A stretch of DNA of 64,000 nucleotides from Minisyncoccota bacterium. Its GTDB lineage: Bacteria; Patescibacteriota; Minisyncoccia; Phycocordibacterales; UBA918. Of this stretch, positions 13,037 to 56,520 are shown in pieces. Numbering within the stretch: position 1 is the stretch's first letter; the number at the start of each line of letters is the position of its first letter. The position numbers were made by a program, and so were the translations under genes. Under the pieces are notes generated by a model, which had not been told where the DNA came from, did no database searches, and was given only the letters and a program-made list of their open reading frames with translations. The DNA is taken from NCBI GenBank assembly GCA_041688155.1, contig JBDNIW010000003.1, forward strand, positions 95,397 through 159,396, written 5' to 3'.

Positions 13037-13267
13037 AGGTTTTAACCTAGTGGATCACCTCCGAGGAACGAATTAATAATCAAAAGCAAGACAAACCCAC
13101 CAATCGCCAGCAAGATAAATTTCATTGGTTTAGTATAGCAGTGAGGTGGGTAACTTGGTGCCGGTAGAACGTGTGGCCAGGGGGTTACTTATTCAGGCTG
13201 CCAACTTGACTACTGGTCTCAGAAGAGTATTATGCTAACGCCTAAATTATTGAATTTTTCTCATTAT

Positions 13268-13570
13268 ATGACTGTTTTAGATCACGTGTTGCAAGCCGAA
13301 CAGGATGCTGCCACCAAGGTTGCGACGGCTACAGCTGCAGCCACCCAACAGATTGCCGATGCTAAAAACGTCTCAGCCGCTGCTATTGCTGCAGAAAAAA
13401 TGCGTCTGGCGGCACACGAAACAGTGACACTGGCTGAACACACGAACACAGTAGAACTCAACTCCAAAACAATCACTACCCAAGCTACCAAAGACGCCGC
13501 TGCAATCAGCGCAGCGTTTGCTGAAAAAAAGACCGAACTAGAACGAAAGATTAACGAGGCTCTTTCGTAA
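13268..13570 (+). CDS. atpH: V/A-type ATPase subunit H (G/H stalk)
   Basis: 100 aa, Ala/Gln-rich coiled coil; first gene of the operon. Confidence 0.6.
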   Translation: MTVLDHVLQAEQDAATKVATATAAATQQIADAKNVSAAAIAAEKMRLAAHETVTLAEHTNTVELNSKTITTQATKDAAAISAAFAEKKTELERKINEALS

Positions 13571-13578
13571 TACATTTT

Positions 13579-15552
13579 ATGGCTGTTGTTACAATGCAAA
13601 AAGTTCAGATTGTCGTCCACCGTACTGATACGGAGACCCTTCTGCAAACCTTGCAACGAGCGGGAGTAATGGAGTTTACTGAAATCGACGCCTCCAAAAT
13701 CACCCCGGCAACTGCTGAGTTCCCGCACGCCCAGCTCCTCCCGCGACTACAGCACGCGGTCGGGTTCCTGGCGCCCTACGAAGTAAAAAAAAGTCTCTGG
13801 CGAACTCTACGCGACGGCACCACCACTGACCTGACCGAAGTGGCGGTAAAGAAATACACCACTGATACTGACGCTGTGTCACTAATCGTGGTGGACCAAG
13901 AGACACTCCAAGTTGAGTTGGCCGAAAAAACCAATGCTGTTCGACTGCTCACCGAGCAAGTGGCCTTATTGCAGATCTGGAAAGTGGTTCCACTTAAATT
14001 GTCTCACCTCAAAACTGCTACCACCTACACAATCCTCGTCACCCGACCAAAAGACGCACCCAAAAACCCCAAACCGCTCGAGGCATTCCTAACTGGTTTC
14101 CTTACAACCAACGACATAACTGCACAGCTAACCACCGTTGAAAAGAACCCTAATCTGTGTGCTGTCACGGTGGCAGCCGATACCATCACAGCGACCGACC
14201 TACAAAAGCAGTTAGAAGCTAAACAACTGCAAATCATCACTGCACCGGAAGGGTTTGAATCTGCCGAAATTGAACTGGTTGCTACCGAAGAGAAATTGGC
14301 GGCGGGGAACGGAGAGTTGGGGGTTGTGCACGACCAGGCGGAGCATTTTGCCCACACCCATCTGCGGCAGCTGCGGATTGCAGCTGAGGTACTCTCGTGG
14401 CAGCGCGATCGGTTCGCGACTATTGCGGTGGCTGGAGCGACCGCTAGTAGTGTGGTATTTGAGGGGTGGATGAATGCATCCATGCAAACTGCCGTGGAAG
14501 CCGAATTTGCGAAGCAACACATCGCAGCGCTCGTCAGCGAACTTGATTTGACTGAGGGTGAGGAGCCGCCGGTTGATATTGTTAACAACTCTTTCATCCA
14601 GCCGTTTGAAGTCGTGACCCGATTGTATGGTATGCCTGGTCACCGTGACCTCGATCCAACGTTATTCTTGGCGGGATTCTTTTTCCTGTTTTTTGGTCTG
14701 TCACTGACCGACGTTGGATACGGGATTTTCTTGATGGCAGTCGCGACGATCATCCTGACGTTGTTCAAAGTCGCCCCCATCGTGCGGACGTTTGCCAAAC
14801 TGCTGCTCTTTATGGGGTTGGGGTCGGCGCTGGTCGGTTTACTATTTGGGGGGTACCTCGGTATCGCGGCTGAATCACTGCCGTCTTGGTTGCGTGCCAT
14901 CCAGGTGTTTGATCCGATTGGCAACCCCCTACCGGTGTTCTACCTAGCGCTTGGGTTGGGGGTATTCCAGGTGATGGTGGGGATGCTACTCAAGATCTAC
15001 AGTGATGCCCGCAACGGAGAACTGACGAACGGTATTTTGGACCAAGGTCCGTGGCTGTTTGTGTTTTGTGTCGCGATTGCGTATCTTGGTGTCTTCACTG
15101 GATACGTTGATTTTGCGACCCCAGAACAGTTAATCAATTTGATTTACGTTGGGTTGATTGCAGTTGTGCTTGCCAGTGGTCGCAAGGGTCAGACTATCCT
15201 CGAGAAAGTGCAGTCCGCTGCACTGAGTCTGTACGCCAGTATCGGATATTTTTCTGACATTCTGTCGTACTCACGTCTCTTGGCCCTTGGTCTTGCGACC
15301 ACTGCGCTGGCATTTGCCGTCAATCTCATTGCTGAGATTGTCAGTGGGACACCGTACGTTGGTCCGGTGCTCGCTATCGTAGTGTTGGTGATAGGTCACC
15401 TCTTTACCTTGGCCGTAAACACGTTGGGTGCCTTCATCCATAGTGCTCGGCTGCAGTTTGTAGAGTTTTTTGGCAAGTTTATTGCTGGAACCGGTCGGGA
15501 GTTTAAACCTCTGAAACGTACGGCGCTACACGTGGTGGTGTCAGATGAATAG
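13579..15552 (+). CDS. atpI: V/A-type ATPase subunit I (a, 116-kDa)
   Basis: 657 aa; soluble N-terminal half and a C-terminal half with ~7 TM segments. Confidence 0.8.
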   Translation: MAVVTMQKVQIVVHRTDTETLLQTLQRAGVMEFTEIDASKITPATAEFPHAQLLPRLQHAVGFLAPYEVKKSLWRTLRDGTTTDLTEVAVKKYTTDTDAVSLIVVDQETLQVELAEKTNAVRLLTEQVALLQIWKVVPLKLSHLKTATTYTILVTRPKDAPKNPKPLEAFLTGFLTTNDITAQLTTVEKNPNLCAVTVAADTITATDLQKQLEAKQLQIITAPEGFESAEIELVATEEKLAAGNGELGVVHDQAEHFAHTHLRQLRIAAEVLSWQRDRFATIAVAGATASSVVFEGWMNASMQTAVEAEFAKQHIAALVSELDLTEGEEPPVDIVNNSFIQPFEVVTRLYGMPGHRDLDPTLFLAGFFFLFFGLSLTDVGYGIFLMAVATIILTLFKVAPIVRTFAKLLLFMGLGSALVGLLFGGYLGIAAESLPSWLRAIQVFDPIGNPLPVFYLALGLGVFQVMVGMLLKIYSDARNGELTNGILDQGPWLFVFCVAIAYLGVFTGYVDFATPEQLINLIYVGLIAVVLASGRKGQTILEKVQSAALSLYASIGYFSDILSYSRLLALGLATTALAFAVNLIAEIVSGTPYVGPVLAIVVLVIGHLFTLAVNTLGAFIHSARLQFVEFFGKFIAGTGREFKPLKRTALHVVVSDE

Positions 15553-15578
15553 AGGTTTGAATAATTAATAAACAATAA

Positions 15579-16070
<492 letters not shown>

Positions 16071-16078
16071 GTATCAGT

Positions 16079-16642
16079 ATGACAAATTCGCTCACCACCA
16101 AAATCACCAATGATGCCGACGCGCAAATCGCTACCATTGTGGCAGCTGTCGCTGTGTCTGTGGCTGCCGTTGAGACCGAGACGAAACGTGTCATCACCGA
16201 CCTACAACGTGACGCCGAGGTACAGCTGACCAAGAAAAAAGCGCACCAAGAACTAGTTGCCACCGCCAAAGCCAATCAATCGGCCAAGATTGCCTTGGCT
16301 GCAGCCAAGCGCACCGCGATTGATGGATTGTTCGAACAGGTAGCGACAACGGTGCTCGCAGAATCTGGAGCCGAGTACGTCGCGCGGTACACCAAACGAG
16401 TACAAGCAGTGTTGCCAGCCGGAGTGGAAGTGTTCTCGGTGCAGTCGCCAGCGGATAAGGCTGACGAGACCAAAGACATCCTAACTGCGCTGGGCATACA
16501 AGCCGAAGTAATCCCGAGCCCAGCGGTGCGAGCGGGACTCATCGTCGTCGCCCGTGACGGCGTGTACGATGCTTCGTTTGATCGCACTTTGTCAGAGGTG
16601 CGACCAAACCTCGAAATGGAACTAATACAAACATCTTCATAA
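16079..16642 (+). CDS. atpE: V/A-type ATPase subunit E
   Basis: 187 aa; position and coiled-coil N-terminus typical of E. Confidence 0.65.
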   Translation: MTNSLTTKITNDADAQIATIVAAVAVSVAAVETETKRVITDLQRDAEVQLTKKKAHQELVATAKANQSAKIALAAAKRTAIDGLFEQVATTVLAESGAEYVARYTKRVQAVLPAGVEVFSVQSPADKADETKDILTALGIQAEVIPSPAVRAGLIVVARDGVYDASFDRTLSEVRPNLEMELIQTSS

Positions 16643-16644
16643 CC

Positions 16645-17625
16645 ATGCAAACGCAGTATATCTACAGTGCGAGCCGAGCGAACACACTCGCGCAATATCT
16701 ACTCACTAAAACCGACATTGATCGTTTGTTAGTAGCGGACGCTGGAGATGATTTGCAGTCTGCTCTGAAAGAAACCTACTTGGCGCCGTACGTGTTGCAG
16801 GACGCTGATATTGCAGTCGCAATCGAAGCCACCCTGATCGAAGCGAAAAAGCTCCTACACCGGATTGCCCCAGACGGTGATATGTTGCGAGTGTTGTGGT
16901 TGCAGTACGACGTCCACAACTTGCGCGTATTTGCCAAAGCCCAAGCCATCGGCAAAGGGTTCGCCGACGTGGCTCAGTTTGTGTCCGCGCGCGGGATTTA
17001 TGATCCGGCGTACTTGTACGCCATGGCCGATCGCAGTGAACTCAACCGGCTGCAAATGAGCTGGCAAGAGTCGTACACCGAGGCGGTGCGTCATGCAACT
17101 GTGGGCGACATTGACCAGGTTGATGGCGTGTTTGATCAGCTGTTCTTTGCGACAGCGACCAGGATAGCGGAGCGGTTCAAAGACCCGTTCATTAGGAAAT
17201 ATGTCCGCGCTATCGTCGACCTGTACAATCTCAAAGCCCGCCTGCGCGCTGCAACGTATGACCAAATCAAATTCAGTCCGGTGTTCATTACCGGCGGCAC
17301 GTTTGCCGAGCGTGAAATCGAGACCAAAGAACAAGTGCTGGTAGCGTTTGCTCAGCTTGGCGGTGAAGCTTTCTGGCGTATCGCCATCGAGCAGTTTGCG
17401 GCCACTGGGAACACCACCCACATCGATGCACGAGCGGACGAGTATCTGGTTGATATGTCAAAACAAGCTAGTTTCGACATGTTCAGTTCAGCCTCACTGG
17501 TGTTATTCTACTTGCAATCAAGACAGTCAGCTGCCAACGTCCGCACTATCGTTGTGGGCAAAAACAGTGGTATGAGTGAGGCTGCTATTCGATCTAATTT
17601 ACGCCTGGCCTATGTCAACAACTAA
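16645..17625 (+). CDS. atpC: V/A-type ATPase subunit C
   Basis: 326 aa; position in the operon. Confidence 0.65.
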   Translation: MQTQYIYSASRANTLAQYLLTKTDIDRLLVADAGDDLQSALKETYLAPYVLQDADIAVAIEATLIEAKKLLHRIAPDGDMLRVLWLQYDVHNLRVFAKAQAIGKGFADVAQFVSARGIYDPAYLYAMADRSELNRLQMSWQESYTEAVRHATVGDIDQVDGVFDQLFFATATRIAERFKDPFIRKYVRAIVDLYNLKARLRAATYDQIKFSPVFITGGTFAEREIETKEQVLVAFAQLGGEAFWRIAIEQFAATGNTTHIDARADEYLVDMSKQASFDMFSSASLVLFYLQSRQSAANVRTIVVGKNSGMSEAAIRSNLRLAYVNN

Positions 17626-17968
17626 CCCTAATCAGTACAAAATAGCTATTGTTGGTCCAACTGATATGGTGTCAGGGTTCCGGGCGTTGGGGGTAGAGGC
17701 GATTGATGCTCAGACCGGCGAAGCCGCGCTTGAAGAATTACGACGCATCAAAAAACTCACCCTGGATCCAGCCAGCGACGTCAAATACGCCGTTGTGTGT
17801 GTGATCGAGGATTTACTCACGAACATCGACCCCGCCGAATACGCTAAGGTAGTCAGTGGCCCCCTCCCGGCCGTCATTGTCTTACCGGGCCCAGAGGGAA
17901 GTAAAGGAGTAGCGATTGCCCGCCTCCGTCGATTAGCCGAACAGGCTGTCGGAAGCGCAATTATTTAA
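17612..17968 (+). CDS. atpF: V/A-type ATPase subunit F
   Basis: ~118 aa, KIAIVGPTDMVSGFRALGVE; start at internal ATG 17612, overlapping atpC by 14 nt. Confidence 0.7.
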   Translation: MSTTNPNQYKIAIVGPTDMVSGFRALGVEAIDAQTGEAALEELRRIKKLTLDPASDVKYAVVCVIEDLLTNIDPAEYAKVVSGPLPAVIVLPGPEGSKGVAIARLRRLAEQAVGSAII

Positions 17969-17994
17969 TCAGTCACAATTTTAATAACAGTACT

Positions 17995-19776
17995 ATGGAA
18001 ACAACAACAGACTTCACAAAAGCAGCCGGCGTCATCAAACGAGTGACCGGACCATTGGTGCGGGCAACGGGTATGAGTGAAGCTAAACTCTACGAGGTTG
18101 TTCGGGTGTCAGACGAAAAACTGATGGGTGAAATCATCGAGCTCCACGGCGATGAGGCGGCGATTCAGGTGTATGAGGAAACCGCTGGTATTGCACCAGG
18201 AGACCCGGTATACCGCACTGGTCGCGTGATGTCTGTTGCTCTAGCTCCAGGATTACTAGAATCTATTTACGACGGTGTCCAACGTCCGCTCAAAACCATC
18301 GAAGCAGTAGCGGGTAACCAATACATCAAACGAGGGATCGAAGCCGACCCGATAGATATGGCAAAAAAGTGGCCCTTCACGGCTGTAGCTAAAGTGGGAG
18401 ATGTCGTGTCAGGTGGAGACGTGCTGGGCGAGGTGCAAGAAACGTCCGTCATCGTGCACAAAGTGATGGTGCCGCCAGCGATGTCAGGTACAATCGAAGC
18501 CATCAATAGTGGCGATTTCACCGTGACTGATGAAGTAGCTACCCTACAGACTGAAAATGGTTCACAATCAGTCGCCATGCTGCAGTACTGGCCGATTCGA
18601 GTAGCGCGGCCCAAAACCGCCAAGATATTTCCAACTGAACCACTGCGAACCGGTGGCCGTTCAATTGATACATTTTTCCCCATCGCCAAGGGTGGAGCCG
18701 GGTCAATCCCGGGTCCATTTGGAGCGGGCAAAACAGTGACTCAACAGGGTATCGCCAAGTACTGTGACGCCGAGATTATCGTCTACATCGGTTGTGGTGA
18801 GCGCGGCAACGAGATGACCGAAGTACTATCAGAATTCCCGCACCTAGTTGACCCGAACACTGGCGAGAACTTGATGAAACGAACCATTCTGATTGCTAAC
18901 ACCTCAAACATGCCGGTAGCAGCGCGTGAGGCCAGTGTCTACACCGGAATCACCATCGCCGAGTATTATCGTGATATGGGCTACAACGTGGCGCTAATGG
19001 CCGACTCAACCTCACGGTGGGCTGAAGCCATGCGTGAGATTTCTGGTCGCCTAGAAGAGATGCCGGGTGAAGAAGGGTACCCAGCGTATTTGTCATCACG
19101 AACCGCTGAATTCTACGAGCGCGCTGGTATTGTTACTGCCCTGGGGAGTGAGGGACGAATCGGCTCACTGACGGTGATTGGAGCGGTGTCGCCTCCAGGT
19201 GGAGACTTGTCCGAACCAGTGTCACAAGCGACGCTACGCGTTACCAAAACGTTCTGGTCACTCGACTCAGGACTGGCGTACAAAAAACACTTCCCATCCA
19301 TCAACTGGCTAACGTCGTACTCGCTCTACGCCCCAAACTTCAAAGACTTCTGGGCGCGTGAAGTGGCACCTGATTTCTCTGACTACCGAGACGCTGCCCT
19401 CAAACTACTCGGAGAAGAATCAAAACTAATCGAAATCGTTCGACTAGTTGGGATGGAGTCACTCTCAGCTAACGATCGCTTGATCCTCGAAGTAGCGCGG
19501 ATGATGCGAGAAGATTACCTGTTCCAGGACGCCTTCTCACCAGACGATGCGTACACACCACTGAAACGTCAGTACGGTATGTTGAAATCAATCATGACGT
19601 TCTATGATGCTGGACTACCAGTAGTGACTCTGCCTGACTTTGAATTCAAAAAATTCACCAGCCTGAAATGTATCGCGCAAGTAGCGACCCTCAAAGAGCA
19701 GCTCGATTGGGAGATCAAAGACTTCGAAGCCTACCAAACCATCATCAAGGACGAAATTAATAGCCTGGTAAACTAA
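17995..19776 (+). CDS. atpA: V/A-type ATPase catalytic subunit A
   Basis: 593 aa; P-loop GPFGAGKTV and A-subunit non-homologous insert. Confidence 0.9.
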
Positions 19777-19781
19777 TTTGT

Positions 19782-21188
19782 ATGAGTAATAAAGAATACA
19801 CAAACATCGTAGATATCGCCGGACCACTACTCGTCATTGACGGAGTGGAGGGGGCACAATACGAAGAACTCGTCGAAGTAAACGTACCAGGAGAAAAAGC
19901 TCCCCGGTATGGCAAGGTGCTCGATACCAGTAAAGGTACAGCCGTGGTACAGATGTTTGCTTCAACCGCTGGCATGACCGCAGCGGGTACCCGCGCCCGG
20001 TTCAAAGGCGAAACTCTCAAACTCGGTGTCAGTGAAGACATGCTGGGGCGAGTGTTCAACGGCTCAGGTGAGACCATCGACGGTGGTCCAGCCCTCGTGC
20101 CAGAGAAACGACTGCCAATTTCCGGTGACCCAATCAACCCCTACTCACGAGAATTCCCCAATGACTTTATCCAAACGGGTATTGGTTCAATCGACGTGAT
20201 GAACACGTTGGTGCGCGGACAAAAACTCCCGATTTTCTCTGGTGCTGGACTACCGCACGCTCGGCTCGCAGCCCAGATTGCTCGCCAAGCGTCGGTAAAA
20301 GACGGCGGGGAATTCGCCATCGTGTTCGCGACCCTCGGAGTGTCATTCGAGGAAGCAGAATACTTCCGTCGTGAATTTGAAGAAGCGGGAGCGCTCGGCC
20401 GATCAGTCCTATTTATGAACACTGCGGCTGACCCAGTGGTGGAGCGTATCTCTATCCCACGCATGGCGCTGACAACCGCTGAGTACCTGGCGTTTGAAAA
20501 AGGCAAGCACGTGTTAGTGATTATGACCGACCTCACTAACTACTGTGAAGCTTTGCGCGAAGTGTCGGCTGCCCGCAAAGAAGTCCCGGGACGACGCGGC
20601 TACCCAGGGTACCTCTACACCGACCTCTCCACCCTCTACGAGCGAGCGGGAGCCATCAAAGGTAAGAAGGGGACAATCACGCAGATTCCCATCCTTACTA
20701 TGCCAGATGATGACAAGACCCACCCCGTACCTGATCTCACCGGCTACATCACCGAAGGACAGTTTGTGATTTCGCGCGACCTTTCAAACCGGGGCATCTT
20801 TCCGCCGGTAGATGTACAAGGCTCACTTTCACGTCTCTGGTCAGCTGGAGTAGGCGAAGGCAAAACCCGTGGTGACCACAAAAACCTTAAAGACCAACTG
20901 TTTGCGTCGTATGCCACCGGCCGCGAAGTGCGCGACTTGGCAGTTGTGCTCGGTGAAGCCTCACTCGATGACACCGACCGCGCCCACCTACGCTTCGCCG
21001 AAGCGTTTGAAACCAAATTCGTCGGTCAAGGTGAGTACGAAAACCGCTCAGTAGAAGAGTCACTCGATATCGGTTGGGAGTTGCTCCGCCTACTACCACG
21101 AACGTCACTCAAGCGAGTCAAGGCGGCTGAAATCGAGCAGTACCTAGGCGTCGAAAGCAAAGCAGACGATAACAAACCAACAAAGTAA
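19782..21188 (+). CDS. atpB: V/A-type ATPase subunit B
   Basis: 468 aa regulatory B subunit. Confidence 0.9.
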
Positions 21189-21199
21189 AAAACCCCCAC

Positions 21200-21237
21200 C
21201 CACCTAACTTAAGTCATCGATGACTTAAGTTAGGTGG
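21200..21237. repeat. 38-bp perfect palindrome between atpB and atpD
   Basis: ccacctaacttaagtcatc|gatgacttaagttaggtgg, preceded by aaaaaaccccc. Confidence 0.8.
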
Positions 21238-21315
21238 CTCGAGGCAAATTCCTGGAACACCCAAGTCAAACGCTCACCTGTACAATAGAAGTCAACCAGT
21301 TAATTTTATCTACCC

Positions 21316-21951
21316 ATGATTCTAAAAGTAAGCCCCACCCGAGTATCGCTGCTCACGCTCAAAAAAGAGCTGAAACTAGCGCAAAAGGGTCACAAACTAC
21401 TCAAAGACAAGCGAGATGGTCTCGTGAAGAAATTCATGGCGGTTATTTATGAAGCCAAGGCGTTGCGCGAGTCCGTCGAGGTGCGGCTAGGTTCGGCGTT
21501 TGACTCGTACACGCGTGCGAGTGCGATGACTGCGTCCGCGGCGCTGGACACGGCCTTTATGGCCCCTAACGCTAAAATTGACCTAGACGTCAAAATCCAG
21601 AGCGTCATGTCAGTCAAAATCCCCGAATTCACTGTTACCAAAACCGGTTCAGCGTTCTCCTACGGCATGCTCGAAACCACCGGCGACCTCGACAACGCCA
21701 TCGTCAAGTTCGACGAAGTGTTTGTCGACATCCTCCGGTTAGCTGAGCTAGAGAAAACCGCCGAGATGCTGGCTGAAGAAATCGAGAAAACTCGCCGGCG
21801 GGTGTCAGCGCTTGAGAACGTCCGCATCCCCAACCTCCAAGACACGATTAAATTCATCACCATGCAGCTCGATGAGCGCAACCGAGACGCGGTGGTCTCG
21901 ACCATGCGGGTGAAAGCCATGATTCTAGCTAAAGAGGCCGAAACAGCCTAA
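21316..21951 (+). CDS. atpD: V/A-type ATPase subunit D
   Basis: 211 aa coiled-coil central stalk; last gene of the operon. Confidence 0.8.
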   Translation: MILKVSPTRVSLLTLKKELKLAQKGHKLLKDKRDGLVKKFMAVIYEAKALRESVEVRLGSAFDSYTRASAMTASAALDTAFMAPNAKIDLDVKIQSVMSVKIPEFTVTKTGSAFSYGMLETTGDLDNAIVKFDEVFVDILRLAELEKTAEMLAEEIEKTRRRVSALENVRIPNLQDTIKFITMQLDERNRDAVVSTMRVKAMILAKEAETA

Positions 21952-22086: not shown

Positions 22087-22170
22087 CAGCCCAAGTGAAG
22101 TTAGAGACAGAACGTCTTGCAGCTTGTAGCGCAACTGCAATATTGCTCTAACTTCACTTGGGCTGTTTTT
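22087..22170 (+). terminator. long-stem hairpin (20-bp perfect stem, 39-nt branched loop) + T5; terminator or small RNA
   Basis: cagcccaagtgaagttagag ... ctctaacttcacttgggctg ttttt; inner sub-hairpin ttgcag..ctgcaa. Confidence 0.5.
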
Positions 22171-22240
22171 GTATATCCTCCTCCAGATAATACAGCAGAG
22201 TAGCTTGCAATATATAGACATTGTAATACAATGTAAGCAT

Positions 22241-22516
22241 ATGAAAACATCCCCGTATACTATTCGCCTAGCTGACGACGTTCGCGCTGCGCTCGAACTT
22301 GAAGCCAAACGTGAGGATCGTTCTGCGGCTCAGTTAGCTACCCAGGCGATTAAAACTATGTTGGCTCAGAAAACTGTGTATCACGCGGCGATTGACACTG
22401 CACTGGAGGAAACTACCAAAGGAAGATTCATCTCTCAGGCAGCCATGCATGAGTGGATCGATAGTTGGGGTGCCGATAGTGAACAAGCAGCACCGACAAT
22501 AGACATCATCCGCTAG
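22241..22516 (+). CDS. type II antitoxin, ParD/RHH (CopG-like)
   Basis: 91 aa from internal ATG; ribbon-helix-helix-like N-terminus (YTIRLADDVRAALE), partner of the downstream ParE-like toxin. Confidence 0.65.
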   Translation: MKTSPYTIRLADDVRAALELEAKREDRSAAQLATQAIKTMLAQKTVYHAAIDTALEETTKGRFISQAAMHEWIDSWGADSEQAAPTIDIIR

Positions 22517-22518
22517 TC

Positions 22519-22800
22519 ATGCAGTTGGTTTATCTACCAAGTACTGAGTCGGACTTACGGTGGTTGCGACAGTACTATGAACAAGTGTTCGTAGCAGGGT
22601 TACAGGCTGCCCGGCAGCATATCTACGCCACCGAGGCGGCGTTACTTGCTAACCCATACTTGGGCCGTCAGGGGAGCGATAACACTAACGTGCGATCGTT
22701 GCCGATCAGTCGGACGCCCTTTGTATTTGTCTACCGAGTAAACAATAATGAAATACAAATTCTGCGCGTCTGGGACACGCGACGTGATAGTGGAGACTGA
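22519..22800 (+). CDS. type II toxin, ParE/RelE family
   Basis: 93 aa; family-like C-terminus FVFVYRVNNNEIQILRVWDTRRD; 2-nt gap from the antitoxin. Confidence 0.7.
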   Translation: MQLVYLPSTESDLRWLRQYYEQVFVAGLQAARQHIYATEAALLANPYLGRQGSDNTNVRSLPISRTPFVFVYRVNNNEIQILRVWDTRRDSGD

Positions 22801-22861: not shown

Positions 22862-23611
22862 TTAGTTTGCCAGCTGTACATCAGCTTCGGTTGATACTTC
22901 GGCTTCGACTGGGTTGGTAGTGGCTGGTTCAGTTTCATCTGTCGGGGCAGCTACTACTGGCTCTTCGGGTACTTCCGTCTCGGCTGGTTCTTCTGCAGTG
23001 CTGGTCGCCTCTGGTGTGGTTTCTTCTACCGGTACTTCTGCTGCCTGGTCTGCTGCTACCTGAGCTTCAGTTTGTTCGACTACAGTGTCGATCTGGGTAT
23101 CAAGCTCGATGTTAGCCTCGTAGTCCTGGACTGAGTCAGCAACGGTGGCTTCTAGGTCCTGTATGGTGTCGGCTACTACTAGGTTGAGGTGTTTGCTGCG
23201 GTTATATGACCCGCCGCGACGTGCTAGTTCAGCTTGCACGTTGGTCTCGTTCGCGCTTGATTCGACGTTGTTGAGCGTACCTTGGTGCGCTATCAGGATG
23301 TTTTTGAGAAGTTCGAGACCAGCTACCAGCTGTGCCCGCTGCGCCGCTGTCAGTTGTAGTTGTTCCGATGCGGTGGCGGCTTGGTTGATCGAGTTGAGTC
23401 GAGTGACGATGCGCACCTTGGCCTTTGTGGCCGCTTCAGTTGTTAGTGATCCAGCCAATACTTGTGCGTCAAGTGCAACTAGTTCCGCTGCTAGCTCGGT
23501 GATTTCGGTGTCGACTGTCGCCACGTAGTCAAACTCGTTTGATGCTGTCAGCACAAACCAGCCAGCAATCAACGCGGCCAAGACCAGGAGGGCGATAATT
23601 ATTTTATTCAT
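22862..23611 (-). CDS. membrane-anchored/secreted acidic low-complexity protein, hypothetical
   Basis: 249 aa; N-terminal TM/signal anchor, coiled-coil middle, E/T/P/A-rich acidic tail. Confidence 0.5.
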   Translation of the reverse strand: MNKIIIALLVLAALIAGWFVLTASNEFDYVATVDTEITELAAELVALDAQVLAGSLTTEAATKAKVRIVTRLNSINQAATASEQLQLTAAQRAQLVAGLELLKNILIAHQGTLNNVESSANETNVQAELARRGGSYNRSKHLNLVVADTIQDLEATVADSVQDYEANIELDTQIDTVVEQTEAQVAADQAAEVPVEETTPEATSTAEEPAETEVPEEPVVAAPTDETEPATTNPVEAEVSTEADVQLAN

Positions 23612-23746: not shown

Positions 23747-24622
23747 CTAACTGGAGAAATTTTTGGTAGATTTCAGTTGTTCTGATTGAGCGTTAAACTG
23801 AGCGACCGCTAGTCGCTCTGTTTTGACCAGCTGCTCAATCTGGTGCTGGTTCATCATCAGGGCGGCGGTGGCAAACGCGTCTGCGTCCGCGGTAGTAGCA
23901 GCCTTGATAAACGTCGCGTCAGCGGTGAGGTTGTCAGAGACGATGTGGGTGTGGGTGCCGGTGCTGTTCTCCCACACTCGTCGATGGGGGCTGGAGGCGG
24001 CAAACCCATTATTATAAAGCGTGGTGTTGGCAATCATGACGCCGGGTTTGGTTGGGTGTTCGAGGTGGATGGTAATTGGTTGATTATTTTTGTGGGTGGC
24101 ATACATGTCGCCACCGCCGTTAATCAAAAACTGCTCGATGCGGTGCGTATGCTGTAGTTGCCTAGCGAGCAGGTCGACGAGGTAGCCTTTGCCAAATCCC
24201 CCGAGGTCAAGGTTAGCGTCACCTGTCAACCTGATCTGATCAGGACTGATCTGTAAATCAATCACAGGGTTACCTGGTCCGACTGCCGGTCCACTGGCGG
24301 TAAAGGTGTAATCTGCGTCGTAGCCTTTGGATTCCAGTATATGCCCAGTCAAAAGGTTGAAGTGGGTATCTGAGCGCAGGTACAGCCGCTTGCCGTACTC
24401 AAGTAGCTGGACGAATTCTGGCGTGGGGTTGACTACCGTTCGGTCACGGTTAAGGGTCGACACCAGCGAATCTGGCTGGAAGCGGGAGTAGTTCTGCTCG
24501 TAGATCGACACGTACGAGGTAATAAAGTCTTTGACCTCGTCACTTCGCTGCGCTACTAGCTCGCCGAATATCTCTATCCACCACTGCGTCCCGAGTGCTT
24601 GGAAAGAATACTTCATCCGCAA
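23747..24622 (-). CDS. apbE: FAD:protein FMN transferase ApbE
   Basis: 291 aa; DLGGFGKGYLVD and INGGGD ApbE motifs; no obvious signal peptide. Confidence 0.8.
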   Translation of the reverse strand: MRMKYSFQALGTQWWIEIFGELVAQRSDEVKDFITSYVSIYEQNYSRFQPDSLVSTLNRDRTVVNPTPEFVQLLEYGKRLYLRSDTHFNLLTGHILESKGYDADYTFTASGPAVGPGNPVIDLQISPDQIRLTGDANLDLGGFGKGYLVDLLARQLQHTHRIEQFLINGGGDMYATHKNNQPITIHLEHPTKPGVMIANTTLYNNGFAASSPHRRVWENSTGTHTHIVSDNLTADATFIKAATTADADAFATAALMMNQHQIEQLVKTERLAVAQFNAQSEQLKSTKNFSS

Positions 24623-25207
24623 TTAGAGTTGGGCGCGAATCTCCGCGACCCCTTGGTTGAACGCGACTGATGTCAGTGACGCGCCACCCACCCGTGATAG
24701 TTCGACGTTGTTGATGTTTTGTCCGATAACTGCGGCTCCATACGCTCCATCAAACCCAGAGTGGGCCGGTGTGACAGCTGGTCCACCGTCATAGGTAATA
24801 TTTGCGTCAATGATAGTTGTGCCGTCTAGTTCCAGAGTAATCACCATGTCGTGCTTGGTCCGGCGGGGGGTGAAATATGACGCTTTAGCGACGAACTGTT
24901 GAGTGGTTGCGGCCGCCGCATCTGCAGTGGCTGCTGGCGCGCTATCAATCTCAGCTGCGGGTCCAGCCGCGGCTGCTCCACCGTTAATCTCAGCTGTGGG
25001 TTCAGTTGCCGCTGCTTCGTCAACCGGGTTCATGGTTGGAGGTGGTTCGGTTGGTGGGGTGAATCCTTCGGGGAAGTTATTGGCTTGCTCGACCGGCTCT
25101 CCAGGAATTTCTTCGACCATTGAAACGGGAACCTCGGCTGGTTGTCGGAACAGCAAGAGTGCGCCCGCAGCGACAATAATAATAACAAAAGCGATGATAT
25201 ACGGCAT
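24623..25207 (-). CDS. membrane-anchored FMN-binding-domain protein (NqrC/RnfG-like), likely ApbE substrate
   Basis: 194 aa; N-terminal TM, Pro/Ala/Glu linker, C-terminal FMN_bind-like domain with GGASLTS (compare NqrC SGATLTS); stop abuts the apbE start. Confidence 0.65.
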   Translation of the reverse strand: MPYIIAFVIIIVAAGALLLFRQPAEVPVSMVEEIPGEPVEQANNFPEGFTPPTEPPPTMNPVDEAAATEPTAEINGGAAAAGPAAEIDSAPAATADAAAATTQQFVAKASYFTPRRTKHDMVITLELDGTTIIDANITYDGGPAVTPAHSGFDGAYGAAVIGQNINNVELSRVGGASLTSVAFNQGVAEIRAQL

Positions 25208-25232
25208 ACAGAAAGATTTAAATTTAAAGTAG

Positions 25233-25248
25233 TTTATACTAGTATAAA
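25233..25248. promoter_or_regulatory. 16-bp perfect palindrome TTTATACTAGTATAAA abutting the start codon at 25251
   Basis: Lies in the 43-bp region between the divergent flavin-module genes. Confidence 0.5.
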
Positions 25249-25250
25249 GT

Positions 25251-26840
25251 ATGACGCGTTACATTTCCAGGTTTATTTCTAGCGTACTAGCAATTCCTAA
25301 CCGGCTGACCGACAAAATCGGGATGTATCGGTTGGTGTCTTTGTCATTGTGGGCGCTGGTGGTTTGCTCATTACTAGCTAGTGCATTTGGCCTACTGGTA
25401 TACAGCATCGGGGCTCAGTTGACGGCAGTGGTGCTTGCGGTTGCCACGGCACTCATCCTCAACGTCGTCTGTGCCAAACTCTGGCGCGTACACGCCAACC
25501 ACGAGTCATCGGTGATCACGGCACTCATCCTGTTTTTCATGATGGTGCCCTACGAAGGCATTGTGACCAACTGGGCATTGCTGTCGGCAGTCGCACTAGG
25601 GACTGTCTCGAAATACGTCATTACCTACCGCCAGCAGCACATATTCAACGCCGCGGCGCTGGGTGCCGTGCTACTGGTGGTCGGGATTGGTGGGTATAAC
25701 CTCTTGACCGGACACAGCTACAACACCGATATATTCCAGTGGTGGGTCGCGAACCCGATTTTGTTCTGGCCGGTAGTACTACTCGGGGTCCTAATTGTGG
25801 CTAAAGTGCGCCGCAGTGCGATGATTGGTGCGTTTATCGGTGTCGGCTTGCTAGTGTTCTTGATTGAGTCGGTCCGGTTTGGTCTGCCGTTGGTCGATTC
25901 TACTTTGGTCTATTTCATATCGTTCCCGACGCTATTTTTGGCATTTTTTATGCTGACCGAGCCGTTTACTATGCCGCCCAAACGAAGCCATCAGGTGTGG
26001 TACGGCGCATTGGTTGGGGCGCTTGCGAGCATGGCCATCTTGGCGCCAGTGTTTGCGATGACACCAGAACTAGCGTTAGTTCTAGGGAACGCGTTTAGCT
26101 ACGTGTTCCGCGTCAAGCGTAAACTATTCCTTAAACTCCAATCTAAACGCTTGATTGCGACCGACACTTGGGAGTTTACCTTTAGCAAACCAGCGGGGTT
26201 CAACTTTGAAGCTGGGCAATACGTCGAGTGGATGCTCCCACACGGGCAAACCGATATGCGTGGCACCCGCCGGTATTTCACCATCGCTTCAAGCCCAACC
26301 GAGTCGGTCGTCCGACTAGCACTCAAAGTGATGCCAGCGGGTCAGAAAGGCAGCACCTACAAATCCCGCTTACTGGATATGGATCACGGGGAAGTGGTGA
26401 TTGTCAGTCAACTAGCGGGGGATTTTGTCCTCCCTAAACACACCGACACCTCCCTTGGGTTCATCGCTGGCGGTATCGGTATAACGCCGTTTTCTAGCCA
26501 CCTCTCGTGGATGCAGGCGAGTGGTAAGCAGTACGACACGCACCTATACTACTGCGCCAACACCGTAGGCGAACTGGCGTACCACGATGAGTTTACCTCT
26601 ATGGGTACCACCATGCCGCTACTAACCATCCCTGTTATCTTCAAAGAAGAAGTGAATCCACCAAACGAACGAGGCTTTGTAACGAGCGAGATGCTAGCCA
26701 GACGAACGCCAGACTTTGCCGAGCGAACCTGGTACATCTCCGGCCCTCCAGGCATGGTCAACGCCTACGAAACGTTACTACAAGAATCAGGCGTCCCCCG
26801 CAAACAAATCAAAACCGATTTCTTCCCCGGTCTTGCGTAA
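25251..26840 (+). CDS. fusion protein: NqrB/RnfD-like polytopic membrane domain + FNR-like FAD/NAD(P)-binding reductase domain
   Basis: 529 aa; residues ~1-300 have ~8 TM and FFMLTEPFTMPP...QVWYGALVGA (compare NqrB FFMATDPVS...KWAYGILIGV); the C-terminus has RYFTIASSP (RxYS FAD motif) and GGIGITP (NAD motif). Confidence 0.7.
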   Translation: MTRYISRFISSVLAIPNRLTDKIGMYRLVSLSLWALVVCSLLASAFGLLVYSIGAQLTAVVLAVATALILNVVCAKLWRVHANHESSVITALILFFMMVPYEGIVTNWALLSAVALGTVSKYVITYRQQHIFNAAALGAVLLVVGIGGYNLLTGHSYNTDIFQWWVANPILFWPVVLLGVLIVAKVRRSAMIGAFIGVGLLVFLIESVRFGLPLVDSTLVYFISFPTLFLAFFMLTEPFTMPPKRSHQVWYGALVGALASMAILAPVFAMTPELALVLGNAFSYVFRVKRKLFLKLQSKRLIATDTWEFTFSKPAGFNFEAGQYVEWMLPHGQTDMRGTRRYFTIASSPTESVVRLALKVMPAGQKGSTYKSRLLDMDHGEVVIVSQLAGDFVLPKHTDTSLGFIAGGIGITPFSSHLSWMQASGKQYDTHLYYCANTVGELAYHDEFTSMGTTMPLLTIPVIFKEEVNPPNERGFVTSEMLARRTPDFAERTWYISGPPGMVNAYETLLQESGVPRKQIKTDFFPGLA

Positions 26841-26868: not shown

Positions 26869-27120
26869 ATGAAAACTCTTACTACAACAGTTGCTCGTAA
26901 AAACCTAGCTGAACTGATTGATACTATTAAATCAACCAATGAAATATTTGCTATTGGCAGGCGCAACAAACCCGAGGTGATTGTGATGAAATTTCCTGAA
27001 ACCTATAACCCAGCGTTCGATGAAATAACAAACCTCAATGCCATGTCTGGTAGTTTTGATTTCTTGGCAGACGAGCCTGATTTATATACGCTTGCTGATG
27101 CCAAAGAAGTCTATGTCTAA
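26869..27120 (+). CDS. type II antitoxin, Phd/YefM family
   Basis: 83 aa, MKTLTTTVARKNLAELIDTIKSTNEIFAIGRRNKPEVIVM. Confidence 0.7.
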   Translation: MKTLTTTVARKNLAELIDTIKSTNEIFAIGRRNKPEVIVMKFPETYNPAFDEITNLNAMSGSFDFLADEPDLYTLADAKEVYV

Positions 27121-27430
27121 GCTGTACGACATCATCCTTATACCGTTTCCATTGACTGATCTGGCTAGTCAAAAAATTCGACCTGCTTTACAGTTGTCGA
27201 GTATAACTGACAAAGATGTATTGCTGTGTGCTATTTCAACCAAGACTCACTCCAAGTTTGATATAAAAATTATGCCGACGTCAGAGAACGGTTTGAAGCA
27301 AATATCTTATGTCCGTACCAACAAAGTAGCTACTATAGACAGGAAGCTAGTGCTGGCTAAGTTAGGTGTACTTGAATCTGTTGCAGTAAAAAGTGTTAAA
27401 ACAAAACTGGCAAAGCTATTTGGTTTGTAA
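27113..27430 (+). CDS. type II toxin, MazF/PemK-like
   Basis: 105 aa, MSKLYDIILIPFPLTDLASQKIRPAL..., overlapping ATGTCTAA start/stop with the antitoxin. Confidence 0.6.
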   Translation: MSKLYDIILIPFPLTDLASQKIRPALQLSSITDKDVLLCAISTKTHSKFDIKIMPTSENGLKQISYVRTNKVATIDRKLVLAKLGVLESVAVKSVKTKLAKLFGL

Positions 27431-27435: not shown

Positions 27436-28119
27436 TTACTGACTCCAAAGGATTTCTTTTTCGTCGTGATTTTTTAAATACTCATTAGCCTGTGAGAAAT
27501 GTTTGCACCCGAAAAATCCTCGGTGGGAGGACAGGGGAGATGGGTGTGGGGCGGTGAGGATGAGGTGTTTCTGCTCGTCGATTAGGCTACTCTTGGCCGC
27601 GGCGAATTTACCCCAGAGGATAAATACAACGTGGTCTTGTTCAACCGAGACTGTCTTAATGATTTGGTCGGTAAACTGCTCCCAGCCGCGACCTTGGTGG
27701 GCGCCTGCGTTGCCGGCCTCTACCGTCAGGGTAGCGTTGAGGAGCAGTACGCCTTGCTTGGCCCAGTGGGTGAGGTTGCCGCTAGTCGGGATTGGTTGGT
27801 CGAGGTCGTCCGCCAGCTCTTTGTAGATGTTTTGCAGTGAGGGCGGCACGTTGACCTTATTTGGTACCGAGAACGATAACCCCATGGCTTGTTTGGGTCC
27901 GTGGTAGGGGTCTTGGCCGAGGATGACCACTTTGACCGCGCTTGGTGGGCAGAGTTTAAGGGCGTTGAATACTAGCGGTGCTGAGGGATAGATTGGTGGC
28001 TCGTTGATCAAGTATGATGCGTTGATGTCTAGCGTGAGCGCATCCCAGTATGGCTTTGTAGTTTCGTCCGCCAAATAAGTTTTCCACGGGGTTGGCAAAT
28101 CGGGAATCATTACCGTCAT
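27436..28119 (-). CDS. ung: uracil-DNA glycosylase (family 1)
   Basis: GQDPYHGPKQAMGLSFSV and HPSPLS motifs. Confidence 0.9.
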   Translation of the reverse strand: MTVMIPDLPTPWKTYLADETTKPYWDALTLDINASYLINEPPIYPSAPLVFNALKLCPPSAVKVVILGQDPYHGPKQAMGLSFSVPNKVNVPPSLQNIYKELADDLDQPIPTSGNLTHWAKQGVLLLNATLTVEAGNAGAHQGRGWEQFTDQIIKTVSVEQDHVVFILWGKFAAAKSSLIDEQKHLILTAPHPSPLSSHRGFFGCKHFSQANEYLKNHDEKEILWSQ

Positions 28120-28140
28120 TATAGCGGTACACTTACATAT

Positions 28141-28362
28141 ATGCGAGAAGCTCGAATCCGAAGCATTGTCAAAGCCCTCACCTGGCGCGCGATCGCCACC
28201 AGTACCACCATGGCACTAGCCTACCTCGTGACCGGTGATCTCAAAGTAGCCGGTGCCATCGGCGCCGCCGACGTCGTGATCAAACTATTTTTCTACTACG
28301 TCCACGAACGAGCTTGGGGCCACGTCGGCTGGGGCAGGAACGTGCATTTTGGGAGGGAGTAA
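28141..28362 (+). CDS. DUF2061-like small membrane protein
   Basis: 73 aa, KALTWRAIATSTTMALAYLVTGD...YYVHERAW. Confidence 0.5.
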   Translation: MREARIRSIVKALTWRAIATSTTMALAYLVTGDLKVAGAIGAADVVIKLFFYYVHERAWGHVGWGRNVHFGRE

Positions 28363-28369
28363 ACATGTA

Positions 28370-28426
28370 TTCATTGACTTCATTGACTTCATTGGTTATT
28401 TGTGCTATATTTACTGACAGTAAATA
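28370..28426. promoter_or_regulatory. 3 x 9-bp tandem repeat (TTCATTGAC) plus 19-bp palindrome TATTTACTGACAGTAAATA upstream of the 28454 gene
   Basis: Directly readable; GGAGG RBS follows. Confidence 0.5.
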
Positions 28427-28453
28427 ACTCGCACATAATGCCTGGAGGCTAAA

Positions 28454-28912
28454 ATGTTTACCAAACCTGACCTGAACAACTTTCGTGCAGAAGTCACGAG
28501 CAATGTCACGGGGGAAAGTGTCAAAGCAGCTATCGCCAAAGATGCTGGGTTGATCAACCTGACATACCATCGGCAAGATGGTTCGTACCGCTTTTCTCTC
28601 GACCATTCGATAATGAAACAAGGTGCTGACTTTGTTCTGATGGTGACGAGTTACGTCGCCATGGAGACTGGTCCGTATGCCCCTGAGAATAATTCGTTAA
28701 GCAAGTGGGTCGTAAGCAAGAAAGGTGGTGAGGGTTCGTTCTTCTATAAGCGTCAGCTGATCCGCTGGTATATCGACGAATTCTCCCCAGGTCAGCTTTC
28801 GCTGTATGTGAAAATCGACCGGAGAAAATCGTGGATGCAACGCATAGGTTACGTTTTTACCTCCAAAAAACGACGGAAAATACATTCTGATTGGCGCAAG
28901 AATTTTGCGTAA
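28454..28912 (+). CDS. hypothetical protein
   Basis: 152-aa ORF with strong GGAGG RBS; no recognised motif. Confidence 0.5.
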   Translation: MFTKPDLNNFRAEVTSNVTGESVKAAIAKDAGLINLTYHRQDGSYRFSLDHSIMKQGADFVLMVTSYVAMETGPYAPENNSLSKWVVSKKGGEGSFFYKRQLIRWYIDEFSPGQLSLYVKIDRRKSWMQRIGYVFTSKKRRKIHSDWRKNFA

Positions 28913-48911: not shown

Positions 48912-48940
48912 TCAGCGATAAAGGTGGTAGTATAATACAC

Positions 48941-55604: not shown

Positions 55605-56520
55605 TAAAAAAATCAAACTTATCCTGGCGGTCGTGGTCGGGCTGTTGGTGTTGGTGCTTATCGTCCCGTTGGCCGTGCGATTGGTTGCTGGGGTGGTGCT
55701 GTATCCGGTGATTCAGGTAGAAAACTGGTTTGCAAAATCGAACCAGGTGTTACCAGCGCTCTGGCGAGACAAAATAGCTATGCAGACCGAGTTGTCGTCG
55801 CTTGAGCAACTGCTTGCCTTAGCTGGCAAGCAGGACCTTACTCAACAGCGATTGCTAGAAGAAAATAACCGCTTGCGGGCGCTACTAGGTGCACCCCAAA
55901 CGAAGCGGACATTGGCGGTAGTTATCGGCAAGCCAGGTGAGTTGCCTTATGACCTGATCCAAATTGACCAGGGTACGACAGCCGGCATAGAAGTCGGTGC
56001 GCCGGTGTATATTGGAACTGACGCCGTGATTGGTATCGTTTCGGCTGTGCAGCGCAACAGTTCATTTGTGACCCTGTTTACCACGCCTGACTTCTTGGCG
56101 ACGGTCTATCTCTCTGGAGCCAATGTGACGGCGACGCTGGAGGGTATTGGTGGCGGCGTGGCGCGAGTCAAGGTGCCCCAGGGGGTGCTGCTGCAGGTGA
56201 ACGACCTGGTGCATATTCCAAGTGTGCAGCCTGGCGTGTACGGTCGAATCGCCTGGGTTGAGAGCGAGCCGACCCAGCCAGAACAGTTCGGCTACATTAC
56301 TCCTGAGATTCCCATCAGTAGTCTGTTCCAGGTATCTGTCGCAACATCAGACAACGTATTCACTGATCGAGATCAAGTTGAAAACAATATCCTCGAAATC
56401 CAAAGGCAACTGCTTGTCATCGAGAATCTCAGTCTCGCAACAACGACCGCAACTACGACTCTGAGGGAGGCTGCAACCACCACTGATAGCACCAACGACA
56501 TAACTATCGATTCACCGTGA
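55567..56520 (+). CDS. mreC: rod shape-determining protein MreC
   Basis: N-terminal TM, coiled coil, beta-rich C-terminal domain; position after mreB. Confidence 0.7.
   Translation: MIMLIRSRRISDNKKIKLILAVVVGLLVLVLIVPLAVRLVAGVVLYPVIQVENWFAKSNQVLPALWRDKIAMQTELSSLEQLLALAGKQDLTQQRLLEENNRLRALLGAPQTKRTLAVVIGKPGELPYDLIQIDQGTTAGIEVGAPVYIGTDAVIGIVSAVQRNSSFVTLFTTPDFLATVYLSGANVTATLEGIGGGVARVKVPQGVLLQVNDLVHIPSVQPGVYGRIAWVESEPTQPEQFGYITPEIPISSLFQVSVATSDNVFTDRDQVENNILEIQRQLLVIENLSLATTTATTTLREAATTTDSTNDITIDSP

Follow-up and report, generated by a model that had tools for sequence, protein, structure and literature searches.

A conserved three-gene flavin electron-transfer module with a leaderless ApbE in a Patescibacteria (CPR) genome

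We analysed a 64,000-nucleotide stretch of DNA from a Patescibacteria (CPR) genome (the window) and found that positions 23747-26840 hold a conserved three-gene module for flavin electron transfer, which confirms the original prediction for this region. The genes encode an NqrC/RnfG-like small subunit, an ApbE, and a fusion of an NqrB/RnfD-like membrane domain to an FNR-type domain (Table 1). As judged from its sequence, the locus is a member of the NQR/RNF-like flavinylation-associated transmembrane electron-transfer system that was described by Méheust et al. 2021 in eLife (PMC8238504) and by Huang et al. 2024 (PMC10979944). So this type of system is already known, and the locus adds a new member of a kind that is still uncharacterised. 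Three aspects are new here. First, the ApbE lacks a leader across the clade. Second, neither the RnfG-like subunit nor its non-canonical motif reaches the level of Pfam detection. Third, the residues of NqrB's riboflavin pocket appear to be kept, and an ATP-synthase operon often lies close by.

Table 1. Features of the three-gene module, in positions of the window.
Feature	Position	Strand	Basis
apbE (FAD:protein FMN transferase), leaderless	23747..24622	-	Pfam PF02424
NqrC/RnfG-like small subunit, 194 aa	24623..25207	-	family profile and fold
Predicted flavinylation motif S171-R-V-G-G-A-S177	24677..24697	-	conservation, hhalign to RsxG
Divergent AT-rich spacer, 43 bp	25208..25250		sequence read directly
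Perfect 16-bp palindrome TTTATAC-TA-GTATAAA	25233-25248		sequence read directly
NqrB/RnfD-like membrane domain, aa 1-290, ~10 TM helices	25251..26120	+	alignment to RsxD, fold
FNR-type FAD/NAD(P)H-binding domain, aa 291-529, predicted cytoplasmic	26121..26840	+	motifs, fold

The locus falls within the definition given in the Methods of PMC8238504, including its flavinylation-associated cluster, with apbE and an RnfG-like gene adjacent. As in the published system, an RnfD/NqrB-like membrane domain (PF03116) is fused at its C-terminal end to an NAD-binding domain (PF00175), the NqrC/RnfG-like partner is membrane-anchored, and apbE is in the cluster. Both also occur in CPR, and both have lost the flavinylated threonine of NqrB/RnfD, which Huang et al. 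describe as unconserved within the NQR/RNF-like system (PMC10979944). The two published accounts already present the two-subunit layout and a model in which electrons pass from NAD(P)H to an extracytosolic flavin (PMC8238504, PMC10979944); the organism modelled in the second was Ktedonobacter racemifer. Our locus may differ from the published system in two respects: the ApbE of its clade is leaderless throughout, and its motif is S-x-V-G-G-A-S instead of D-x-x-[S/T]-G-A-[S/T].

The fusion of an NqrB/RnfD-like to an FNR-like domain is supported by the alignment to RsxD, by the fold match, and by FNR motifs. The membrane domain had been described as truncated. This proved incorrect: it has the full-length RnfD fold, and only the internal, flavinylated periplasmic loop is deleted (the alignment has a gap opposite RsxD ~150-225, the region that contains GISQAT). 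The predicted absence of an SGAT flavinylation loop does hold, and there is no [ST]GA[ST] anywhere in the 529-aa fusion protein. (Searched alone against PDB with phmmer, the membrane domain gave only claudin hydrophobic noise.) Several residues resembling those of NqrB's riboflavin pocket are kept, namely T90, H130, N133, F233, and E237. By a two-step alignment, T162, N200, N203, and D346 of NqrB correspond to T90, H130, N133, and E237, and these positions are conserved. In the C-terminal domain, the fold matches the FNR superfamily, which combines an FAD-binding beta-barrel with a Rossmann domain for NAD(P) and carries R-x-Y-[ST], G-x-G-x-x-P, and [CS]-G-P motifs; the PF00970 match is below threshold (17 bits vs 21.1). 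Its motifs are R341-Y-F-T344, GGIGITP (407-413), SGPPGM (497-502), and the C-terminal aromatics F524/F525; across 35 homologs, there is little or no variation in R341-Y-F-T344, G407-G-I-G-I-T-P413, and S497-G-P-P. The membrane domain is found almost only as a fusion of about 500 amino acids (536 clusters at 50% identity, E<=1e-10).

After a TM helix at its N-terminus (aa 2-19), the small subunit has an acidic, disordered linker with many A, P, and E residues (aa 20-100) and then a C-terminal domain with the FMN_bind fold (aa 101-194). The assignment to FMN_bind held at the level of the family profile and the fold, with the three-strand plus two-helix arrangement present, but not at the level of Pfam: when the protein alone was searched against Pfam and NCBIfam, PF04205 gave no match even at E<=10. 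None of 99 homologs has a precomputed Pfam domain, and across the family PF04205 matches weakly in 41 of 50 members (best E-value 3.7e-5). A search of PDB sequences with the family profile returned only a pilin-like TM-helix artefact. The linker is acidic and rich in E, P, T, and A across the family, varies in length from 26 to 94 aa, and resembles an extracytoplasmic stalk.

We then considered where FMN might be attached. The S-x-V-G-G-A-S motif is nearly invariant in the small-subunit family: in 50 homologs, G174, G175, and S177 are invariant, and conservation is 90% or higher at A176, L178, T179, and S180. (A distant member carries N-G-S-S at this position.) S177, at the N-terminus of the last helix, is the predicted acceptor of the FMN phosphoester. 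The canonical motif is D-x-x-[S/T]-G-A-[S/T], and changing its aspartate to alanine is reported to have only minor effects (PMC12052999). The motif in the small subunit differs from it at two positions, with a conserved serine for the aspartate and an invariant glycine for [S/T], and keeps the G-A-S core. When the family was aligned to the single RsxG sequence of E. coli with hhalign, GGAS fell on TGAT, in an alignment of only 18 columns with negligible probability. This is the sole such motif in the window. Three other [ST]GA[ST] or GGA[ST] tetrapeptides lack the aspartate context, and by our own estimate their number is as expected by chance. Another candidate for a second substrate of ApbE, the FMN_red protein at 31387-32127, is similar to FMN reductases that Huang et al. 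describe as flavinylated, but we rejected it: it has no motif and no leader.

The three genes are kept together in related genomes. The small gene accompanies the fusion gene in 37 of 40 loci, and apbE does so in 34 of 40; some of these arrangements are divergent and others co-directional, and the synteny extends to a member that is 36% identical (L042). This rules out a chance juxtaposition. The prediction had counted three genes here instead of the usual 6-7 subunits, and a scan of roughly 50 ORFs in the window did find no other Rnf or Nqr family.

We propose the following path. The cytoplasmic FNR-type domain, with FAD bound, would oxidise NAD(P)H. Electrons would pass into the fused RnfD/NqrB-like domain, probably via a non-covalent flavin in the pocket that resembles NqrB's riboflavin site, near the cytoplasmic face. 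They would leave at the outer face to the FMN that ApbE would have attached covalently to Ser177 of the tethered subunit, and this FMN would stand in for the covalent FMN of the RnfD/NqrB loop that is deleted here. The final acceptor would be extracytosolic. Overall, this would be the final stretch of Na+-NQR, from FMN-C to FMN-B to riboflavin, run in reverse, with an FNR in place of the quinone site or RnfC. We think it fairly probable that the three genes form such an NQR/RNF-like path from NAD(P)H to an outer FMN. All of the domain, fold, and synteny tests agree with it, as do the deleted loop, the conserved pocket residues, and a near-invariant motif placed on RsxG's flavinylation site (with the weak alignment noted above). 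The prediction of a minimal conduit from NAD(P)H to an extracytosolic flavin was thus right, and, being the same as the published model, not new. Two points count against this path: no Fe-S cluster or heme lies between FAD and the flavin site in the membrane, and the small subunit's motif is non-canonical.

A third is the location of ApbE. The gene itself is clear: PF02424 matches residues 10-269 (profile positions 1-258 of 266; E=1.6e-31, 110 bits), and phmmer aligns residues 9-285 to residues 22-317 of 4xgw, a crystal construct of E. coli ApbE (E=1e-10). The true start is likely the ATG at 24614-24616 (MKYSFQALGT...). Reading the junction directly, this ATG sits 6 nt past the stop codon of the upstream small gene, to which apbE is translationally coupled. 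The first core strand begins after just 8 residues, and an in-frame stop sits immediately upstream, which leaves no space for a signal peptide. As a control, E. coli Ftp has a 40-residue leader before the same strand, with an h-region score of 2.96 and a lipobox (FVGC). An N-terminal lipoprotein signal peptide is typical of ApbE (Ftp), but not universal. The suspected lack of a signal peptide was borne out: we found no signal peptide, lipobox, or TM segment on ApbE in 34 of 34 loci, and the ApbE of L042 is leaderless too. Mis-annotated starts do not account for this, because in all 34 loci there are upstream stops, or else the extensions are non-hydrophobic and non-conserved. (The sole hydrophobic extension, in L004, is missing from its close relatives L005, L007, and L009.) This suggests that the ApbE is most likely cytoplasmic, whereas our model places its substrate outside.

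It is rather doubtful, in our judgement, that flavinylation takes place inside the cell (with the FMN domain staying there or being exported afterwards) or, as a further option, that the two-subunit module is ion-coupled. The variant in which Ser177 is modified on the cytoplasmic side by an ApbE without a leader seems unlikely to us, and it comes in two versions. The small subunit could be oriented N-out/C-in, so that its FMN domain is always cytoplasmic and, for instance, shuttles electrons from the FNR domain to the cytoplasmic face of the RnfD-like domain; this would be a membrane redox module with a topology unlike the published model, and it is not obvious what the conserved transmembrane domain would then do. 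Or the motif, which is 17 residues from the C-terminus, could be flavinylated on the unfolded chain before translocation. A minimal cell would then be spared the export of FAD in making its extracellular flavin wire, but we know of no precedent for this. Besides the leaderless ApbE and the coupling of its gene to the small gene, it fits with flavinylation in the cytoplasm that cytosolic ApbEs are known and that a 7-residue tag at a protein's terminus suffices as a target (PMC12052999). The positive-inside rule gives N-in/C-out no support either: the small subunit has no Lys or Arg ahead of the TM helix and roughly one directly behind it, and across 48 family members there is 1 before and 47 after. 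However, the flank after the helix is net acidic (151 D/E vs 47 K/R), which favours the outside. Helix counting likewise places on the outer face both the conserved W164-W165 and the RnfD loop that is deleted here, and in the AlphaFold-multimer model published for a homologous complex, the RnfG-like domain is docked against the RnfD-like subunit from its extracytosolic side (PMC10979944).

Returning to the proposed outward path, we wondered if it is coupled to ion movement, since a conserved NqrB-type gate and pocket residues are accompanied by a recurrent ATP-synthase neighbourhood. If the cation pathway of NqrB were retained, electron export could pump Na+ or H+, or a gradient made by the ATPase could drive the reverse reaction, and the module and the neighbouring ATP synthase would then be functionally linked. 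No simpler relative of the NQR/RNF pumps would be known, and CPR might use the module to energise their membrane. NqrB is considered to be the part of NQR that translocates Na+, with a gate at F338/F342 (PMC10643135); these map by the same two-step alignment to the conserved F229/F233, and E157 of NqrB corresponds, by extrapolation, to the invariant E85. On the other hand, NqrB's E274 has no counterpart in the aligned fusion protein, and the module lacks the NqrC/NqrD-E conformational switch that is thought to be needed for pumping in NQR and RNF (PMC10643135). In the window, the module's neighbours are toxin-antitoxin genes, UDG, DUF2061, MutM, and the ATPase operon. In roughly 20 of 40 loci, subunits of the ATPase A/B type are encoded no more than about 5 kb away. 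They come in two different arrangements, and are V-type in some loci and apparently of another type in others, but the DNA-repair genes UDG and MutM are equally conserved neighbours, and related genomes may share a gene order through inheritance and not selection. We consider ion coupling improbable.

The neighbourhood also bears on the acceptor. No candidate for it lies in the window, which is a further point against the proposed path. A tethered FMN could reduce extracellular Fe(III), or another metal, for uptake, and an assimilatory metal reductase of this kind has been suggested before for several flavinylation-associated systems. Yet the annotated ORFs of the 64-kb window include neither VIT1 nor any other iron transporter, and none recurs among the conserved neighbours that we examined across loci, so we give this role little credence.

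Compared with Na+-NQR (NqrA-F) or RNF (RnfABCDGE), the module has only two subunits. It has no Fe-S half-path of NqrD/E or RnfA/E and no NqrA or RnfB/C, its FNR module lacks a ferredoxin domain, the covalent-FMN loop of NqrB/RnfD is deleted, and electrons presumably flow one way, outward, instead of in a semicircle. Heme-based reductases that are fused to an FNR (NOX/FRE, and the MsrQ-like and PepSY-like::NAD_binding fusions of flavinylation clusters) also differ. The conduit here is an RnfD/urea-transporter-like fold, presumably with flavins, and not a bis-heme, six-helix ferric-reductase domain; our fusion protein has no paired heme-ligand histidines. Flavin-based extracellular electron transfer in Listeria (Ndh2, EetAB, PplA, FmnB) is similar in that the cell is monoderm, NADH is the ultimate donor, and a surface-tethered FMN_bind protein is flavinylated by an ApbE-type enzyme (as predicted here). 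But in Listeria, electrons are described as passing through the quinone pool, and FmnB as an exported lipoprotein whose FAD is supplied by an ECF transporter (PMC9973259), while the path here would be quinone-independent and its ApbE has no export signal.

CPR bacteria (Patescibacteria) have neither respiratory chains nor quinones. A route that takes electrons from NAD(P)H to an external flavin with two proteins and no quinone could be among their few outlets for reducing equivalents, or it could serve iron reduction or redox interaction with a host's surface. (A paper on oxic adaptation in CPR makes no mention of Rnf, flavins, or ATPases.) The system is also much more common in genomes of the Paceibacteria type than in the original count of 127 clusters, as the membrane domain alone gives the 536 clusters mentioned above. 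Standard HMM and signal-peptide filters miss both the predicted flavinylated subunit and the ApbE of this module. As a filter for extracytosolic flavinylation, the 2021 survey used signal peptides or lipidation sites, either in ApbE or in the FMN-binding protein (PMC8238504). Because the RnfG-like subunit is too divergent for Pfam's FMN_bind threshold and its motif is S-x-V-G-G-A-S, the published pipeline would probably miss these clusters, and the clade is probably under-counted.

Finally, we made some minor observations. A tblastn search of ApbE against plasmids gave only distant relatives annotated as "FAD:protein FMN transferase." In the spacer between the divergent genes, a promoter scan did no better than shuffled controls. 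The palindrome there is probably two overlapping, back-to-back -10 boxes (TATACT), a simpler explanation than a regulator's operator, which we rejected. It is kept in L001, while other loci have two separate, opposed TATACT-like boxes.

The module belongs to an already described class, the NQR/RNF-like systems, which as far as the searched literature shows is experimentally uncharacterised (no experimental study of such a system turned up in our search). Méheust et al. 2021 define these systems by exactly the module's architecture (PMC8238504). A second paper, Huang et al. 2024 (PMC10979944), reported that there are two subunits, built a model of the Ktedonobacter complex, and noted that the flavinylation threonine of NqrB/RnfD has not been conserved. 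Its authors proposed that the RnfD-like subunit's flavin site is sampled by the covalent FMN of its RnfG-like partner. So every feature that the original prediction took to be unusual is already in print. Its reading of the genes as a minimal NAD(P)H-to-extracytosolic-flavin conduit was correct, and agrees with the published model.

The three ORFs have exactly the predicted coordinates (see table), and the peptides quoted from them are all present in the translations. Only 6 nt separate the small-subunit gene from apbE, and a 43-bp spacer divides the small-subunit gene from the divergent fusion gene. Pfam confirmed ApbE, and also the NqrB/RnfD-family membrane domain of the fusion (NQR2_RnfD_RnfE, 30.0 bits, with a cut-off of 27.7). 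The FNR-like domain was recovered in part: NAD_binding_1 matched (E = 3.7e-11), but FAD_binding_6 was below Pfam's threshold. In NCBIfam, this C-terminal half groups with flavohemoprotein, MmoC, BenC, and NqrF-type reductases.

The small subunit was expected to be an FMN_bind protein. It has no match of its own in Pfam or NCBIfam, and none of its 99 homologs has a precomputed Pfam domain, but 41 of 50 members gave weak FMN_bind matches when scanned singly (best E = 3.7e-5). In an alignment of 50 homologs, the protein starts with a hydrophobic helix, followed by an acidic linker that varies and is rich in Pro, Thr, and Ala, and then by a conserved domain of ~94 residues at the C-terminus that closes with L-S-R-V-G-G-A-S-L-T-S (G174, G175, and S177 are invariant). 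AlphaFold2 models residues 101-194 with confidence (pLDDT >90), as three strands and two helices; a Foldseek comparison to the PDB was uninformative. Because the fold, the Gly-Ala-Ser that opens the last helix, and the obligatory linkage to apbE combine, we find the FMN_bind-type assignment convincing. In its canonical form the ApbE motif reads D-x-x-[S/T]-G-A-[S/T], and substituting its Asp reportedly has only minor effects (PMC12052999). S-R-V-G-G-A-S keeps the core and changes two outer positions. No other protein in the window contains the motif.

We compared 40 related loci that carry the fusion gene, each from a Patescibacteria MAG (Paceibacteria, Kaiserbacteria, and other Parcubacteria, with some labelled Saccharibacteria). 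Synteny is conserved: 37 loci have the small gene alongside, and 34 have apbE. Of the six that lack apbE, four are truncated contigs; L002 and L031 alone have full flanks and still no apbE. The layout is divergent in most loci, with three co-directional cases (in the order fusion, small gene, apbE); a tandem pair of small-subunit paralogs occurs in four. L042, a more distant locus (36% identity), also has all three components. With the membrane domain alone as query, an exhaustive search gave 855 clusters at 50% identity, 536 of them at E≤1e-10, and nearly all of the best 150 are 480-530 aa, the size of the fusion. The module, whose domain identities, fold, motif conservation, and linkage are shown here, is real and strongly conserved.

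To map residues of NqrB onto the fusion, we used a two-step alignment, with RsxD (an RnfD counterpart) as the bridge to the NqrB structure published for V. cholerae (PMC10643135). The riboflavin-pocket residues T162, N200, N203, and D346 correspond to T90, H130, N133, and E237, and the gate phenylalanines F338 and F342 to F229 and F233. H130, N133, E237, and F229 are invariant and T90 is at least 90% conserved; F233 is in neither group. This suggests that the RnfD-like domain retains a site for a non-covalently bound flavin close to the cytoplasmic face.

The published NQR/RNF-like mechanism is the best-supported reading. The FAD of the cytoplasmic FNR domain would take electrons from NAD(P)H and pass them to a membrane-embedded flavin within the RnfD-like domain; at the outer face, they would next reach the FMN covalently bound to Ser177 in the tethered subunit, and from there an acceptor beyond. 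For this module, we infer the cofactors, the direction of electron flow, the sidedness, and the acceptor. The module might also couple to ion transport or reduce iron, though the evidence for either is weak. Among the window's ~50 annotated ORFs, we found no iron transporter and no other candidate for the acceptor.

The main rival reading places flavinylation, and perhaps the FMN domain too, in the cytoplasm. First, the ApbE was predicted to lack an obvious signal peptide, and this holds in 34 of 34 loci, which favours cytoplasmic flavinylation. In each, the ORF begins at the first core strand (ALGTxWWIE); a median of 15.5 residues is possible upstream, and no locus has a credible hydrophobic segment or lipobox there. 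(E. coli ApbE, the control, does have a leader: 40 residues, including an h-region and FVGC.) Since cytosolic ApbEs are also known from the literature, this ApbE is most probably cytoplasmic. Second, the rival draws on the charges around the small subunit's TM helix: across the family there is 1 K/R before the helix in 48 sequences, against 47 K/R in the 15 residues after it. Those 15 residues also contain 151 D/E, and judged by these flanking charges the topology is ambiguous. Only two things here might surprise a specialist: that the ApbE is leaderless, and on which side flavinylation takes place.

In the survey of Méheust et al. 2021, Pfam matches to FMN_bind or ApbE had to come with a predicted signal peptide. 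The small subunit fails on Pfam and the ApbE fails on the signal peptide, so this clade was probably under-counted.

Features of the window and of related loci (L numbers)
Feature	Position	Strand	Details
apbE	23747-24622	-	291 aa; Pfam ApbE PF02424, E=1.6e-31
Small subunit	24623-25207	-	194 aa; predicted FMN_bind-fold protein
Fusion	25251-26840	+	529 aa; PF03116 + PF00175
Tandem RnfG-like paralogs (two)	L004 357-1460; L005 3822-4940; L007 3825-4949; L009 237-1328		between apbE and fusion; one sub-clade
Complete V/A-type ATPase operon	13232-21951	+	~1.8 kb upstream of apbE; G/H-like, I (657 aa), K/c (159 aa), unassigned 187-aa ORF, C/AC39, F, A (593 aa), B (468 aa), D
Alpha/beta-family ATP-synthase genes, upstream			L001, L008, L010, L014-L016, L018, L022, L025, L031, L035
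Alpha/beta-family ATP-synthase genes, ~4 kb downstream			L011, L021, L026, L027, L032-L034, L036
Palindrome	25233-25248		TTTATAC-TA-GTATAAA
Toxin-antitoxin pair	22169-22800	+	RHH + ParE-like
Toxin-antitoxin pair	26905-27430	+	small antitoxin + MazF/PemK
249-aa protein	22862-23611	-	directly downstream of apbE
Uracil-DNA glycosylase, DUF2061 membrane protein (73 aa), MutM/Fpg	27436-29969		kept in L001, L005, L008, L010, L012, L015, L016, L018, L022, L025, L030, L031, L035, L040
FMN_red	31387-32127	+	246 aa
Fasciclin-domain proteins (two)	33552-34724		tandem
HTH_3 (XRE-type) + EPSP_synthase/MurA-family fusion	41096-42604	-	502 aa
Two MreB paralogs, MreC, PBP2-type transpeptidase	42771-43790; 54531-58510	+	
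HerA/TraG-like ATPase	44544-47288		914 aa; T4SS coupling-type
Two large ORFs	47307-50380		no Pfam matches

Roughly half of the related loci have ATPase A/B-type genes within ~5 kb of the module, in two arrangements. True V-type A/B/D subunits (E<1e-95) are found in L001, L010, L014, and L015. Elsewhere there are ORFs of ~460 aa from the alpha/beta family that are distant from V-type subunits (E~1e-20 to 1e-38) and are possibly F-type; if so, the ATPase type differs at the syntenic position.

The 43-bp spacer contains a perfect 16-bp palindrome, shared with L001; in other loci, two TATACT-like boxes lie apart and face opposite ways. The palindrome is probably a pair of overlapping back-to-back -10 elements, in which case the fusion mRNA would be nearly leaderless. 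Two type II toxin-antitoxin pairs flank the redox cluster. All 40 related loci lack both pairs, which therefore look like recent insertions to the left and right of a conserved block. In many loci, base-excision repair genes follow the fusion gene directly; their position beside a flavin redox module may simply be inherited gene order. The 249-aa protein encoded after apbE, in the same direction, starts with a TM helix; its body is coiled or of low complexity, and its tail is very acidic and rich in Pro, Glu, and Thr. It has no Pfam match, and its only homolog among the loci is in L001.

Elsewhere in the window, an NADPH-dependent FMN reductase with a C-terminal extension of ~80 residues looks superficially like the ApbE-flavinylated FMN reductases that Huang et al. 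2024 describe, yet lacks both an [ST]GA[ST]-type motif and a leader. An unusual fusion joins an N-terminal HTH_3 domain to an enolpyruvyl transferase domain. The mre genes and the PBP2-type transpeptidase are rod-shape machinery in a small-genome bacterium; near them are two tandem fasciclin-domain proteins and a HerA/TraG-like ATPase, the latter followed by two large ORFs.
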